The notes below the pieces were generated by a model. The model saw only the letters and a list, made by a program, of their open reading frames with translations. It had not been told where the DNA came from and made no database searches. A DNA stretch of 6,136 bases from IMG/VR virus record IMGVR_UViG_2657245439_000003; one strand, 5' to 3'. The stretch comes from a virus (lineage: Duplodnaviria; Heunggongvirae; Uroviricota; Caudoviricetes). The translations under genes and the position numbers were made by a program. Position 1 is the first letter of the stretch. Every line of letters begins with the position of its first letter. Below, piece by piece: positions 1-6,136 of the stretch.

Positions 1-1137
1 CTGACGCTTCAGGCAGAACTCCGGACGCTGGAGAAGCATGCCGGAGCGAATGAGAAAATCAGCCAGCAGCGCCGGGATTTGTGGAAGGCGGAGAATCAGT
101 TCGCGGTACTGGAGGAGGCGGCGCAACGTCGCCAGCTGTCTGCACAGGAGAAATCCCTGCTGGCGCATAAAGACGAGACGCTGGAGTACAAGCGCCAGCT
201 GGCTGCACTTGGCGACAAGGTTACGTATCAGGAGCACCTGAACGCGCTGGCGCAGCAGGCGGATAAATTCGCACAGCAGCAACGGGCAAAACGGGCCGCC
301 ATTGATGCGAAAAGCCGGGGGCTGACTGACCGGCAGGCAGAACGGGAAGGCACGGAACAGCGCCTGAAGGAACAGTATGGCGATAATCCGCTGGCGCTGA
401 ATAACGTCATGTCAGAGCAGAAAAAGACCTGGGCGGCTGAAGACCAGCTTCGCGGGAGCTGGATGGCAGGCCTGAAGTCCGGCTGGAGTGAGTGGGAAGA
501 GAGCGCCACGGACAGTATATCGCAGGTAAAAAGTGCAGCCACGCAGACCTTTGATGGAATTGCACAGAATATGGCGGCGATGCTGACCGGCAGTGAGCAG
601 AACTGGCGCAGCTTCACCCGTTCCGTGCTGTCCATGATGACAGAAATTCTGCTTAAGCAGGCAATGGTGGGGATTGTCGGGAGTATCGGCAGCGCCATTG
701 GCGGGGCTGCCGGTGGCAGCGCATCAGCGTCAGGCGGTACAGCCATTCAGGCAGCTGCGGCGAAATTCCATTTTGCAACCGGAGGATTTACGGGAACCGG
801 CGGCAAATACGAACCAGCCGGGATTGTCCACCGCGGGGAATTTGTCTTCACGAAGGAGGCAACCAGCCGGATTGGCGTAGGAAATCTTTACCGGCTGATG
901 CGCGGCTATGCCACCGGCGGTTATGTCGGTACACCGGGCAGCATGGCGGACAGCCGGTCGCAGGCGTCCGGGACGTTTGAGCAGAATAACCATGTGGTGA
1001 TTAACAACGACGGCACGAACGGGCAGATTGGACCACAGGCGTTGAAGGCTGTGTATGACATGGCCCGCAAGGGTGCCCGTGATGAAATTCAGGCACAGAT
1101 GCGCGATGGTGGTCTGTTCTCCGGAGGTGGACGATGA
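1..1137 (+). CDS. H: Tail tape measure protein, C-terminal ~378 aa; 5' end lies upstream of the window
   Basis: Frame 1 is open from base 1 to the TGA at 1135-1137 (track ORF 79..1137 is the same frame, started at an internal TTG). The translation (LTLQAELRTLEKHAGANEKISQQRRDLWKAENQ...RDGGLFSGGGR) matches my recollection of the lambda gpH C-terminus, with an A/Q/E/K/R-rich helical segment followed by a Gly/Ala-rich hydrophobic segment. The stop overlaps the M start (ATGA). Confidence 0.93.
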   Translation: MTLQAELRTLEKHAGANEKISQQRRDLWKAENQFAVLEEAAQRRQLSAQEKSLLAHKDETLEYKRQLAALGDKVTYQEHLNALAQQADKFAQQQRAKRAAIDAKSRGLTDRQAEREGTEQRLKEQYGDNPLALNNVMSEQKKTWAAEDQLRGSWMAGLKSGWSEWEESATDSISQVKSAATQTFDGIAQNMAAMLTGSEQNWRSFTRSVLSMMTEILLKQAMVGIVGSIGSAIGGAAGGSASASGGTAIQAAAAKFHFATGGFTGTGGKYEPAGIVHRGEFVFTKEATSRIGVGNLYRLMRGYATGGYVGTPGSMADSRSQASGTFEQNNHVVINNDGTNGQIGPQALKAVYDMARKGARDEIQAQMRDGGLFSGGGR

Positions 1138-2166: not shown

Positions 2167-2910
2167 ATGACAGAGACAGAATCAGCGATTCTGGCGCACG
2201 CCCGGCGATGTGCGCCAGCGGAGTCGTGCGGCTTCGTGGTGAGAACGCCGGAGGGGGACAGGTATTTACCCTGCGTGAATATCTCCGGTGAGCCGGAGGA
2301 TTATTTCCGGATGTCGCCGGAGGACTGGCTGAGGGCAGAAATGCAGGGTGAGATTATGGCGCTGGTCCACAGTCATCCCGGCGGTCTGCCCTGGCTGAGT
2401 GAGGCCGACAGGCGGCTGCAGGTGCAGAGTGATTTGCCGTGGTGGCTGGTCTGCCGGGGGGCGATTCATAAGTTCCGCTGTGTGCCGCATCTTACCGGGC
2501 GGCGCTTTGAGCACGGGGTGACGGACTGTTACACACTGTTCCGGGATGCTTACCATCTGGCGGGGATTGAGATGCCGGACTTTCATCGTGAGGATGACTG
2601 GTGGCGTAATGGTCAGAATCTCTATCTTGATAATCTGGAGGCCACAGGGCTGTATCAGGTGCCGTTGTCAGCGGCGCAGCCGGGCGATGTGCTGCTGTGC
2701 TGTTTTGGTTCATCGGTGCCGAATCATGCCGCCATTTACTGTGGTGATGGCGAGCTGCTGCACCATATTCCTGAACAACTGAGTAAACGAGAGAGGTACA
2801 CAGACAAATGGCAGCGACGCACACACTCCCTCTGGCGTCACCGGGCATGGCACGCGTCTGCCTTTACGGGGATTTGCAACGATTTGGCCGCCGCATCGAT
2901 CTTCGTGTGA
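2167..2910 (+). CDS. K: Tail tip assembly protein K, with N-terminal JAMM/MPN-type and C-terminal NlpC/P60-type domains; long form 247 aa (alternative internal start at 2311 gives 199 aa)
   Basis: The ORF is open from the ATG at 2167, 5 nt after the L stop, to the TGA at 2908-2910. It contains an intact JAMM signature H-S-H-x7-S-x2-D (HSHPGGLPWLSEAD, nt 2368-2409) with a candidate upstream Glu (E19, nt 2221-2223). It also has an NlpC/P60-like Cys (GVTDCYTLF) with downstream His residues (NHAAIY, LLHHIP). The last 103 nt overlap I in another frame. Confidence 0.88.
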   Translation: MTETESAILAHARRCAPAESCGFVVRTPEGDRYLPCVNISGEPEDYFRMSPEDWLRAEMQGEIMALVHSHPGGLPWLSEADRRLQVQSDLPWWLVCRGAIHKFRCVPHLTGRRFEHGVTDCYTLFRDAYHLAGIEMPDFHREDDWWRNGQNLYLDNLEATGLYQVPLSAAQPGDVLLCCFGSSVPNHAAIYCGDGELLHHIPEQLSKRERYTDKWQRRTHSLWRHRAWHASAFTGICNDLAAASIFV

Positions 2911-3449
2911 AAACGGGGGCCGAAGCTATCCGGGCGCTGGCCACACAGCTTCCGGCGTTTCGTCAGAAACTGAGCGACGGTTGGTATCAGGTACGCATTG
3001 CCGGGCATGATGCAGGCGAAAACGAATTATCATCCCGTCTTAGTGAGCCGCTGGCAAATGGTGCAGTGATCCACATCGTTCCGCGTCTTGCGGGAGCCAA
3101 AAGTAGCGGTGTTTTTCAGGCGGTGTTGGGTGCGGCGTTGATTGCTACGGCAATCTGGATGCCGGGGATCAGTATCGCTTTTAGTGACATCCTCTTTTCA
3201 ATGGGCGCGGCGATGACGCTTGGAGGTGTTGCACAGATGTTGGCACCGAAAGCCAGTACCGCAACAACGACCAGCACGGATAACGGTAAGCAGAACACGT
3301 ATTTCTCGTCACTGGATAACATGGTTGCTCAGGGCAATGTTTTGCCTGTTCTGTACGGTGAAATGCGTGTGGGGTCTCGGGTGGTTTCTCAGGAGATCAG
3401 CACGGCAGACGAAGGGGACGGTGGTCAGGTTGTGGTGATTGGTCGCTGA
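2808..3449 (+). CDS. I: Tail tip assembly protein I, 213 aa
   Basis: ATG at 2808 lies inside the 3' end of K, in a different frame, with SD-like GAGAGG at 2791-2796. The N-terminus (MAATHTLPLASPGMARVCLYGDLQRFGRRIDLRVKTGAEAIRALATQLPAFRQKLSDGWYQVRIAG) and C-terminus (TDNGKQNTYFSSLDNMVAQGNVLPVLYGEMRVGSRVVSQEISTADEGDGGQVVVIGR) match lambda gpI as I recall it. The middle hydrophobic segment appears to differ and is about 10 aa shorter. Confidence 0.9.
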   Translation: MAATHTLPLASPGMARVCLYGDLQRFGRRIDLRVKTGAEAIRALATQLPAFRQKLSDGWYQVRIAGHDAGENELSSRLSEPLANGAVIHIVPRLAGAKSSGVFQAVLGAALIATAIWMPGISIAFSDILFSMGAAMTLGGVAQMLAPKASTATTTSTDNGKQNTYFSSLDNMVAQGNVLPVLYGEMRVGSRVVSQEISTADEGDGGQVVVIGR

Positions 3450-3466
3450 TGCAAAATGTTTTATGT

Positions 3467-3493
3467 GAAACCGCCTCCGGGCGGTTTTGTCGT
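3467..3493 (+). terminator. Terminator-like or attenuator hairpin in the I-J intergenic region
   Basis: GAAACCGCC (3467-3475), loop TCCG, GGCGGTTTT (3480-3488) form an 8-9 bp stem with a GC core, followed by a T-rich tract TTTTGTCGTTTAT. It lies between the I stop (3449) and the J RBS. Confidence 0.35.
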
Positions 3494-3496
3494 TTA

Positions 3497-3512
3497 TGGA
3501 GCATGACGAATG
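3497..3512 (+). promoter_or_regulatory. Ribosome-binding site and start codon of J
   Basis: GGAG at 3498-3501 sits 8 nt upstream of the ATG at 3510-3512. Confidence 0.5.
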
Positions 3513-6050
3513 GGTAAAGGCAGCAGTAAGGGGCATACCCCGCGCGAAGCGAAGGACAACCTGAAATCCACGCAGTTGCTGAGTGTGATTGATGCCATCA
3601 GTGAAGGGCCGATTGAAGGTCCGGTGGATGGATTAAAAAGCGTGCTGCTGAACAGTACGCCGGTGCTGGACAGTGAGGGGAATACCAACATCTCCGGTGT
3701 CACGGTGGTGTTCCGGGCAGGTGAGCAGGAGCAGACACCGCCGGAGGGATTTGAATCCTCCGGTTCCGAGACGGTGCTGGGTACGGAAGTGAAATACGAC
3801 ACGCCGATCACCCGGACCATCACGTCGGCAAACATCGACCGTCTGCGCTTTACCTTCGGTGTGCAGGCACTGGTGGAAACCACCTCAAAGGGTGACCGGA
3901 ATCCGTCGGAAGTCCGCCTGCTGGTTCAGATACAGCGTAACGGTGGCTGGGTGACGGAAAAAGACATCACCATTAAGGGCAAAACCACCTCGCAGTATCT
4001 GGCCTCGGTGGTGGTGGATAACCTGCCGCCGCGCCCGTTTAATATCCGGATGCGCAGAATGACGCCGGACAGCACCACAGACCAGCTGCAGAACAAAACG
4101 CTCTGGTCGTCATACACTGAAATCATCGATGTGAAACAGTGCTACCCGAACACGGCACTGGTCGGCGTGCAGGTGGATTCGGAGCAGTTCGGCAGCCAGC
4201 AGGTGAGCCGTAATTATCATCTGCGCGGGCGTATTCTGCAGGTGCCGTCGAATTATAACCCGCAGACGCGGCAATACAGCGGTATCTGGGACGGAACGTT
4301 TAAACCGGCATACAGCAACAACATGGCCTGGTGTCTGTGGGATATGCTGACCCATCCGCGCTACGGCATGGGGAAACGTCTTGGTGCGGCGGATGTGGAT
4401 AAATGGGCGCTGTATGTCATCGGCCAGCATTGCGGCCAGTCGGTGCCGGATGGCTTTGGTGGCACGGAGCCGCGTATTACCTGTAATGCGTACCTGACCA
4501 CGCAGCGCAAGGCGTGGGATGTGCTCAGTGATTTCTGCTCGGCGAAGCGCTGTATGCCGGTATGGAACGGGCAGACGCTGACGTTTGTGCAGGACCGGCC
4601 ATCGGATAAGGTGTGGACCTATAACCGCAGTAATGTGGTGATGCCGGATGATGGCGCGCCGTTCCGCTACAGCTTCAGCGCCCTGAAAGACCGCCATAAT
4701 GCCGTTGAGGTGAACTGGATTGACCCGAACAACGGCTGGGAGACGGCGACAGAGCTTGTGGAGGATACGCAGGCCATTGCCCGTTACGGTCGTAACGTCA
4801 CGAAGATGGATGCTTTTGGCTGTACCAGCCGGGGGCAGGCACACCGCGCCGGGCTGTGGCTGATTAAAACAGAACTGCTGGAAACGCAGACCGTGGACTT
4901 CAGCGTGGGCGCAGAAGGGCTTCGCCATGTGCCGGGCGATGTCATTGAAATCTGTGATGATGACTATGCCGGTATCAGCACCGGCGGGCGCGTGCTGGCG
5001 GTAAACAGCCAGACCCGGACGCTGACGCTCGACCGTGAAATCACGCTGCCATCCTCCGGCACCACGCTGATAAGCCTGGTTGACGGTGAGGGTAATCCGG
5101 TCAGCGTGGAGGTCCAGTCCGTCACCGACGGCGTGAAGGTGAAAGTGAGCCGTGTTCCTGACGGCGTTGCTGAATACAGCGTGTGGGGGCTGAAGTTGCC
5201 GACGTTGCGCCAGCGCCTGTTCCGCTGCGTGAGTATCCGTGAGAACGACGACGGCACGTATGCCATCACTGCCGTGCAGCATGTACCGGAGAAAGAGGCC
5301 ATCGTGGATAACGGGGCGCACTTTGACGGCGACCAGAGCGGCACGGTGAATGGTGTCACTCCGCCAGCAGTGCAACACCTGACCGCAGAAGTCACCGCAG
5401 ACAGCGGGGAATACCAGGTGCTGGCGCGCTGGGACACGCCGAAGGTGGTGAAGGGCGTGAGCTTTATGCTTCGCCTGACCGTGGCAGCGGATGACGGCAG
5501 TGAGCGGCTGGTCAGCACGGCCCGGACGACGGAAACCACATACCGCTTCACGCAACTGGCTTTGGGAAACTACAGGCTGACAGTCCGGGCGGCAAATGCC
5601 TGGGGGCAGCAGGGCGATCCGGCGTCGGTATCGTTCCGGATTGCCGCACCGGCAGCACCGTCGCGGATTGAGCTGACACCGGGCTATTTTCAGATAACCG
5701 CAACGTCGCATCTTGCCGTTTATGATCCGACGGTACAGTTTGAGTTCTGGTTCTCGGAAAAGCGGATTGCGGATATCAGGCAGGTTGAAACCACAGCCCG
5801 CTATCTTGGCACGGCGCTGTACTGGATAGCTGCCAGTAGCAATATTAAGCCGGGTTATGATTATTACTTTTATATCCGCAGCGTGAATACCGTTGGTAAA
5901 TCGGCATTTGTGGAGGCCGTCGGTCGGGCGAGCGATGATGCGGAAGGTTATCTGAATTTTTATAAAGGGTTGATCAATAAAACGCATCTCGGCAAGGAAC
6001 TGCTGGAAAACTTTGAGCTGACGGAAGATAACGCCAGCAAACTGGAGTAA
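3510..6050 (+). CDS. J: Host specificity protein J (central tail fibre / tail tip), 846 aa; apparently C-terminally truncated relative to the ~1132-aa lambda J
   Basis: ATG at 3510 is preceded by GGAG at 3498-3501. The product ([41 protein letters not shown]...) matches lambda gpJ from the N-terminus onward with scattered substitutions. The ORF ends at TAA 6048-6050 after ...[10 protein letters not shown], the point where lambda J, as I recall it, continues with a further ~280 residues. Confidence 0.88.
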
Positions 6051-6051
6051 T

Positions 6052-6082
6052 GCCGATCAGTTAAGGATCAGTTGACCGATCC
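6052..6082 (+). repeat. Short direct repeats with three clustered GATC sites just downstream of the J stop
   Basis: CCGATCAGTT-AAG-GATCAGTT-GA-CCGATCC: GATCAGTT occurs at 6055-6062 and 6066-6073, and CCGATC at 6052-6057 and 6076-6081. There are three GATC tetranucleotides within 28 bp (6054, 6066, 6078). Confidence 0.5.
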
Positions 6083-6096
6083 AGTGGCTGTGTAAG

Positions 6097-6131
6097 AATC
6101 CGGAAACGCTCACTTGTTTCCGGATTTTTTT
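6097..6131 (+). terminator. Rho-independent terminator downstream of J
   Basis: Perfect 11-bp inverted repeat AATCCGGAAAC (6097-6107) / GTTTCCGGATT (6116-6126) with an 8-nt loop GCTCACTT, immediately followed by a run of seven T (6125-6131). Confidence 0.6.
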
Positions 6132-6136
6132 ATGCA

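Follow-up and report, generated by a model that had tools for sequence, protein, structure and literature searches.

The closest described relative of the gene considered here is J of phage lambda, which encodes the tail-tip and host-specificity protein gpJ. Cryo-EM has established the order of its domains as hub, FNIII-1, FNIII-2, alpha-helical shaft, beta-prism central straight fibre and receptor-binding domain, with the helices of the shaft formed by residues 809-840 and 841-861 (PMC11101478). The complete chain of 1132 aa is represented in PDB 8IYK (chain J, 'Tip attachment protein J'), and the same chain is present in 8K35, 8XCG and 8XCI.

The second described system of relevance is the E. 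coli insertion sequence IS4, a member of the IS4 subgroup of the IS4 family whose transposase is InsG. IS4 carries inverted repeats of 18 bp and duplicates 11-13 bp of its target. Its published length is 1426 bp (PMC6650469), and target duplications of about 10 bp have been described for the IS4 family (PMC2266710).

The window analyzed here, a stretch of 6136 nt, is the whole of contig JHTH01000229.1 in the draft E. coli assembly GCA_001266385.1. It carries a lambda-like J that ends after 846 codons. Among the causes considered in the original prediction was a recombination or insertion junction, and this explanation has held up. A lambda-like E. coli prophage has almost certainly received a transposed copy of IS4 in its J gene, directly behind codon 846, and the rest of J very probably lies just past the element.

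The Shortened J Gene

The genes of the window are arranged as in lambda, in the order H-M-L-K-I-J. The ORFs upstream of J belong to the Pfam families Tape_meas_lam_C, Phage_min_tail, Phage_tail_L, Prok-JAB/NLPC_P60 and Lambda_tail_I. In the program-made ORF list, J occupies positions 3510..6050 of the plus strand and encodes 846 aa, ending with the residues NASKLE and the stop codon TAA at 6048-6050. The original prediction that this product is collinear with lambda gpJ from the first residue was borne out, as residues 1-846 align with residues 1-846 of the lambda protein without a single gap (E = 0). The alignment with J of phage 434 (1137 aa) is likewise gapless over residues 1-846, with 97% identity. 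Additionally, the protein contains the Pfam families FNIII-A_GpJ, Phage-tail_3, Ig_J and Ig_J_second. On the basis of the ORF, the gpJ alignment and the Pfam matches, positions 3510..6047 (plus strand) represent codons 1-846, the 5' part of a lambdoid tail-tip/host-specificity J.

When compared with gpJ as a whole, the protein possesses the collinear hub and the FNIII domains, and its gene holds the expected place in the tail cluster after H, M, L, K and I. However, the C-terminal fibre and the receptor-binding domain are not joined to these in one polypeptide, since the ORF ends at 846. It is in the intact C-terminus alone that the gene departs from J, and it does so because of the IS4 insertion. 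The break after codon 846 falls within the shaft, the alpha-helical part of the central tail fibre (helices 809-840 and 841-861). The hub domains, FNIII-1, FNIII-2 and the first portion of the shaft are kept, while the remaining shaft, the beta-prism fibre and the receptor-binding domain are absent from the 846-aa product. In its present state the gene is a disrupted J and not an intact one.

It had also been pointed out that lambda J is longer, and gpJ indeed reaches 1132 aa as against 846 aa here, the next residues of J being EFSKEWKD. This continuation is absent from all three translated frames past 6047, and DNA homology between the window and the intact J genes of phages and prophages is lost at about 6047. 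Repair of J by correction of a frameshift or nonsense change was rejected for lack of J-like sequence in the three frames beyond 6047; the earlier idea that some frame past 6050 might restore a lambda-like J was not upheld.

The Left End of IS4

The sequence following J had been described as non-lambda sequence that begins after the stop codon. It is foreign, as claimed, but it is the left end of IS4 and it begins at 6048, so the stop codon TAA is itself foreign. Specifically, the first three bases of the IS4 inverted repeat (6048-6050) serve as the stop of the shortened J ORF. Positions 6048..6136 (plus strand) comprise the first 89 of the 1426 bp of the element and are 100% identical to positions 12539-12627 of L006, a locus from another E. 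coli assembly. The first 40 nt of this end match exactly at 44 loci in species-representative genomes, and the only E. coli genomes whose match extends to the last position of the window have two annotations there, 'host specificity protein J' and, after it, 'IS4-like element IS4 family transposase'. The assignment of 6048-6136 to the IS4 left end thus follows from the inverted repeat at 6048 together with the RefSeq-annotated IS4 junctions, including the loci L001 (from strain RM10740) and L002.

The remaining features of IS4 are also found. The inverted repeats of about 18 bp begin with TAATGCC. The left one, TAATGCCGATCAGTTAAG, lies in the window at 6048..6065 (plus strand), and the right one, which lies beyond the window and is seen in L001, L002 and L006, reads TAATGCCAGTCAGTTAAG when reverse-complemented and in this form matches it at 16 of 18 positions. 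The element is 1426 bp long in L006 and L001 and 1425 bp long, with a frameshift, in L002. Each of these three loci has a 13-bp target duplication, CAGCAAACTGGAG, which recurs after the right IS4 end; the window contains the left copy only, at 6035..6047 (plus strand), corresponding to J codons ~842-846. At 10 other IS4 sites the duplications are 11-13 bp, and both the repeats and the duplications agree with those published for IS4. A single DDE transposase ORF of the IS4 type is present in L006, of which the window has the first 5 nt. The insertion also fits the target preference of the element, as described below. Overall, the window's left end is identical to E. coli IS4 over its 89 nt, and the element itself presents no differences. 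Copies of IS4 differ from one another by 4-15 SNPs, and what is particular here is the site of insertion, J codon 846.

Several sequence features had been noted after the stop codon, namely GATC-rich direct repeats and a strong terminator. GATC (Dam) sites can indeed be read from the sequence at three positions, 6055, 6066 and 6078, and the two copies of an 8-bp direct repeat, GATCAGTT, occupy 6055-6062 and 6066-6073 (6055..6081 in all, no strand assigned). They lie inside and beside the IS4 end, where they may be transposase-binding or Dam-regulated sites, a putative role. The hairpin is likewise present. Its arms, AATCCGGAAAC and GTTTCCGGATT, form a stem at 6097-6107 and 6116-6126 that runs into seven T residues at 6125-6131, the whole feature spanning 6097..6131 on the plus strand. 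RNA folding of the 89 nt from 6048 to 6136 gives -31.2 kcal/mol (z = -4.6), and none of 200 shuffled sequences was as stable. The hairpin (6097-6126) has a stem of 11-13 bp and stands directly before the ATG of the transposase gene. However, a simple terminator scan of the IS4 end did not call it; the probable reason is pairing between the A and T tracts on either side, which would consume the T-run. The hairpin is thus a result of RNA folding alone, and 'strong terminator' is a structural description rather than a demonstrated function. At the other end of the element, a second terminator-like palindrome lies over the right inverted repeat on the opposite strand.

The transposase gene begins at 6132 with ATGCA (6132..6136, plus strand), in correspondence with gene starts at 12623 in L006 and 8733 in L001. 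A candidate promoter for this gene, TTGACC separated by 16 nt from AAGAAT, with a TG upstream, is located at 6072..6099 (plus strand). It matches 9 of 12 consensus positions and has an extended -10 element; the match is one of consensus alone, and about one such site is expected by chance in the region. In IS10 and IS50, the transposase genes are shielded from outside transcription. IS4 may resemble them, as its hairpin and T-run precede the transposase ATG directly; in the case of IS4 this likeness is read from the sequence only. The hairpin and T-run would stop or occlude transcripts reading in from J, while a transposase transcript from the internal promoter would have its 5' end within the hairpin's left arm and would not be held back.

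The Complete Insertion in a Near-Identical Locus

The window stops at 6136 because the short-read contig ends 89 nt into a repeated IS, within IS4, which is common in such assemblies. The right junction, the 3' end of J and lom/stf/tfa of the window's strain lie past 6136, where the contig ends, and we infer them from L006. This locus is part of a 5.05-Mb contig that encodes an identical 846-aa protein, STH57125.1. Its identity to the window is 99.69% across the full 6136 nt and 100% across 2952-6136. The IS4 copy of L006 is 1426 bp long, with inverted repeats matching at 16 of 18 positions and the 13-bp duplication CAGCAAACTGGAG, and its in silico removal together with one duplicate yields an uninterrupted J ORF of 1132 aa. 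Its transposase has 442 aa, contains the Pfam families Nterm_IS4 (PF13006) and DDE_Tnp_1 (PF01609), and scores 304.5 bits against NCBIfam NF033592, for which the cut-off is 115.

Beyond the element, J codons 847-1132 are displaced by 1426 bp plus the 13-bp duplication. The 286 residues that they encode match Pfam Phage_Tail_Tip and Ig_GpJ_C as well as positions 888-1163 of the NCBIfam profile lambda_TipJ. They also share 97-98% identity with the J proteins of PhiR30_1, Turner and 2H10, all of them isolated phages, which indicates that the displaced C-terminus is undamaged. With the gene repaired, J has the length of lambda gpJ, to which it is also alike in its collinear residues 1-846 and in the gene order H-M-L-K-I-J. 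In contrast to lambda, the window ORF ends at 846, and the displaced C-terminus is of the PhiR30_1/Turner/2H10 type. Gene callers render the downstream fragment as a 271-aa ORF that starts from an internal ATG. After the J 3' end come lom, the tail-fibre genes stf and tfa, ybhB and bioA-like fragments. Inspection of the region downstream of J for an IS or transposase gene, which had been proposed as a check, has therefore found the IS4 transposase and, after it, the missing end of J, lom and the tail-fibre genes. From the K-12 map, the ybhB and bioA-like neighbours presumably mark the att lambda region (attλ).

Some further features of L006 deserve mention. Its H, I, lom and bioA are split, and I is intact in the window. 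Possible indel errors in L006 mean that these split genes are not relied on as evidence of decay. Two ORFs of 239 aa are also found downstream. Their identification as IS1 was considered and rejected, there being no IS1 end, no repeat between the two and no NCBIfam match.

These observations are accommodated by a simple insertion, in which IS4 would have duplicated 13 bp of its target, CAGCAAACTGGAG. The first triplet of the inverted repeat is TAA in frame, and translation of J therefore ends at the junction. The missing parts of J (codons 847-1132) would still be encoded at a distance of 1.4 kb, ahead of lom, stf and tfa. In the window's strain, the rest of IS4 would be followed by CAGCAAACTGGAG and then by GAGTTTTCG... 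of J; the right end of IS4 is predicted to adjoin CAGCAAACTGGAGGAGTTTTCG, with ...CTTAACTGACTGGCATTA joining CAGCAAACTGGAGGAGTTTTCGAAAGAG. Judging from the structural model of gpJ, an 846-aa J would be unable to support adsorption and infection, and the prophage would no longer yield infectious particles unless the IS were precisely excised. The original prediction of a loss of adsorption through the missing receptor-binding part of J is reasonable, if an inferred one; the tail would either fail to adsorb or not be made at all.

Alternative Explanations

Three other readings of the short J were weighed. The original prediction had named prophage decay as a possible cause, in which the 3' end of J and lom/stf/tfa have been deleted and IS4, or a deletion adjacent to and mediated by IS4, borders the remnant. 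IS copies can mediate deletions, and some IS4 copies of S. flexneri lack matching duplications, which indicates IS4-IS4 recombination. Moreover, the window ends within IS4, and the sequence downstream in its own strain is not seen directly. However, L006, with its perfect identity across 2952-6136, retains the 13-bp duplication, the 3' end of J, lom and the tail-fibre genes, and RM10740 has the same simple insertion. The very genes supposed to be lost follow the IS in both L006 and RM10740, and decay by deletion is improbable. An assembly or sequencing artefact is more improbable still. A stop in a J that continues could in principle be created by a base error or by chimerism at the end of a contig, and the window does come from a draft assembly, as a short contig with a repeat at its end. 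However, the independent assembly with the 5.05-Mb contig has the identical junction and encodes the identical 846-aa protein, the junction is also found in four complete RefSeq genomes, and no frame continues J after 6047.

A modular architecture, with the receptor-binding module encoded separately, had been proposed as well. Under this reading J would be naturally split, such that a hub protein (residues 1-846) and a fibre and receptor-binding protein (residues ~862-1132) assemble in trans into a functional tail. The 271-aa ORF with its internal ATG would provide the second protein, and it is undamaged and 97-98% identical to the C-termini of functional J proteins. In contrast, a complete mobile element and a target duplication between the two parts are the signature of an accident; the fragment consists of the displaced codons 847-1132, and excision of the IS restores a 1132-aa ORF. 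The phage collection contains no J that ends at 846, a possibility that had been raised, and close homologues are all ~1132-1137 aa long. In addition, the cut lies inside a trimeric helical shaft, the junction is rare (4 of 5426 genomes), and RefSeq marks both halves as pseudogenes. A split but functional J is thus as hard to credit as an artefact, and transposition of IS4 into an intact J is the preferred explanation.

Other Junctions Between J and IS4

The same junction is present in four complete E. coli genomes out of 5426, those of RM10740, FDAARGOS_536, 21AR0173 and AREA_492, and a closely similar J up to the junction occurs in about half of complete E. coli genomes. In all four, the insertion point, the orientation and the 13-bp duplication are those of the window, and RefSeq flags both halves of J as pseudogenes around IS4. 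The annotation of RM10740 consists of J with its C-terminus missing, the IS4 transposase, a tail-tip protein with its N-terminus missing, Lom, a tail fibre and a tail-fibre assembly protein. Its left junction reads ...GCCAGCAAACTGGAG/TAATGCCGATCAGTTAAG... and its right junction ...CTTAACTGACTGGCATTA/CAGCAAACTGGAGGAGTTT.... The exact junction pattern had zero matches in three further collections, namely the species-representative genomes, the viral contigs of IMG/VR and the metagenome contigs of JGI, and the junction is rare outside the few E. coli assemblies that BLAST and a protein look-up brought to light. No account of IS4 in J was found among the leading matches of a literature search.

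The four occurrences are not alike in their surroundings. RM10740 shares a 312-nt left flank that is identical to that of the window's lineage, with an IS4 copy that differs at 10 positions. The FDAARGOS_536 group represents a decayed prophage remnant in which the J flanks diverge within 21 nt to the left and 34 nt to the right of the IS, and in which the C-terminus of J is ~21% divergent. Between the three junctions, the IS4 copies are 5-13 SNPs apart, as much as copies at unrelated sites. The divergence of the FDAARGOS_536 group probably reflects separate insertion events. A single old insertion, followed by recombination and gene conversion among IS4 copies, would be another way to arrive at the same pattern; of the two, repeated and independent insertion at a single hot spot is the simpler explanation.

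Target-Site Preference at Codon 846

The IS4 target motif was derived from sequences flanking the element, taken from the 44 species-representative loci with exact ends plus E. coli loci; these provided 43 distinct flanks on the left, and 12 sites where both sides were available. These flanks share an A-run, ~3 nt, an imperfect palindrome of 11-13 bp (C.GC...G..G), ~3 nt and a T-run, and many of the target sites resemble bidirectional intrinsic terminators. A half-site matrix trained on 51 half-sites other than J ranked the J junction, at 13-bp spacing, first when applied to the L006 region with J repaired, which offers 21,054 positions. The score was 23.1, against an average of -13.5 (sd 7.4) and 17.9 for the runner-up, and it exceeded every leave-one-out score of the known sites, the maximum of which was 22.6. 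Only 3 of 266,150 background positions reached the J score, and all three were terminator-like palindromes. The empty site at codon 846 of the intact J of phage 434 also ranked first in its 8.5-kb region, with a score of 21.6. The J site was hit because it mimics the preferred target of IS4, an A-rich tract, a palindrome and a T tract. This result agrees with the 'spectacular apparent insertion specificity' described for the IS4 subgroup (PMC2266710).

Based on the current evidence, it is possible, though only tentatively proposed, that codons ~842-846 of lambdoid J genes are a built-in hot spot for IS4 that has been hit repeatedly and independently. Both the first rank of the site in the window's prophage and in intact phage 434, and the occurrence of the junction in diverged J contexts with different IS4 variants, speak for this. 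The site might be conserved because it encodes part of the helical shaft of the fibre, a proposal to be held with the same reserve. Equally tentative is the notion that E. coli could in this way ground its lambda-like prophages recurrently and, by virtue of precise excision, in principle reversibly. The presence of the junction in 4 of 5426 genomes, in diverged contexts, suggests that the hot spot is hit rarely.

Conclusion

In conclusion, the insertion of IS4 into J is an ordinary case of a prophage gene disrupted by an IS, of a kind already known and annotated in RefSeq. Only the quantitative fit of J codon 846 to the IS4 target motif and the possible recurrence of the insertion are new, and mildly so. 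The short J is an IS-disrupted gene seen across the break of a draft contig, and it represents neither a new tail architecture nor a host-range variant. The database entry of 846 aa, STH57125.1, is a truncation product, and the prophage is best counted among those defective in adsorption and infection. More generally, J codon 846 exemplifies how sequence-specific IS elements can immobilise prophages, at a hot spot that may be recurrent.

Comparison of the contig with the closest E. coli locus

The start of the contig falls partway through the tape-measure gene H and is presumed to be another assembly break, located at a sequence that further lambdoid prophages in this genome have in common with it. 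L006, the closely related E. coli locus that carries the full IS4 in J, differs from the window by 18 substitutions, 15 of which fall within a 466-nt patch of H (window 372-837), while the remainder is almost identical. This cluster looks like a small recombination patch. A second type of difference is found in gene I, which is intact in the window (2874-3449) and has one extra C in L006, at window 2951. The H, lom and bioA-like aminotransferase genes of L006 are also split. Together with the extra C in I, these interruptions may represent indel errors of the L006 assembly rather than real decay. Within J, a 625-aa ORF was called on the minus strand (window 4110-5987). This is a mechanical ORF call only, lying on the strand opposite to a well-supported gene.

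Elsewhere in L006, two 239-aa ORFs were called on the minus strand (16096-16815 and 19103-19822), with the 460-aa 'Collar' tail-fibre gene positioned between them. Neither ORF had a match in Pfam or NCBIfam, and comparison with each other indicated that they are not repeats. IS1 was considered as their identity and rejected, given the lack of an IS1 end, of a repeat between the ORFs and of an NCBIfam match.

IS4 copies in other genomes

Numerous IS4 copies are present in Kosakonia oryziphila and in a Scandinavium MAG. Across the IS4 flanks that were compared, many insertion sites are intergenic terminator-like palindromes, such as the one downstream of dacB. Exact 40-nt IS4 ends were also found in two unexpected taxa, Photorhabdus khanii (L035) and Methylobacterium mesophilicum (L039); the latter, a 265-bp contig, looks like contamination. 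In Shigella flexneri SFBU1023, the target duplications do not match at some copies (L022, L038, L027). To the right of the L038 copy, the flanking sequence starts with CTCCCCCGGTG, the duplication belonging to the L027 site, which suggests IS4-IS4 recombination in this genome, either by inversion or by deletion.

The IS4 target and its terminator-like character

The unoccupied equivalent of the J::IS4 site was identified in phage 434 (L003 5526-5538), at about codons 842-846 of J. With a score of 21.6 from the IS4 half-site matrix, it is the top IS4 target of the 8.5-kb tail region of this phage. The phage 434 J that holds the empty site is an intact gene of a viable phage.

The flanks of L008-L051, L004 and L005 share a common motif, consisting of an A-run, about 3 nt, an imperfect palindrome of 11-13 bp, about 3 nt and a T-run. 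Judged by this arrangement, the IS4 target resembles bidirectional intrinsic terminators. The right inverted repeat of IS4 itself lies within a palindrome that resembles a terminator and, on the minus strand, runs into a T-rich tract (L006 13935-13960). With the hairpin at the left end of the element, transcription coming into IS4 from the left or from the right would therefore meet a predicted hairpin.
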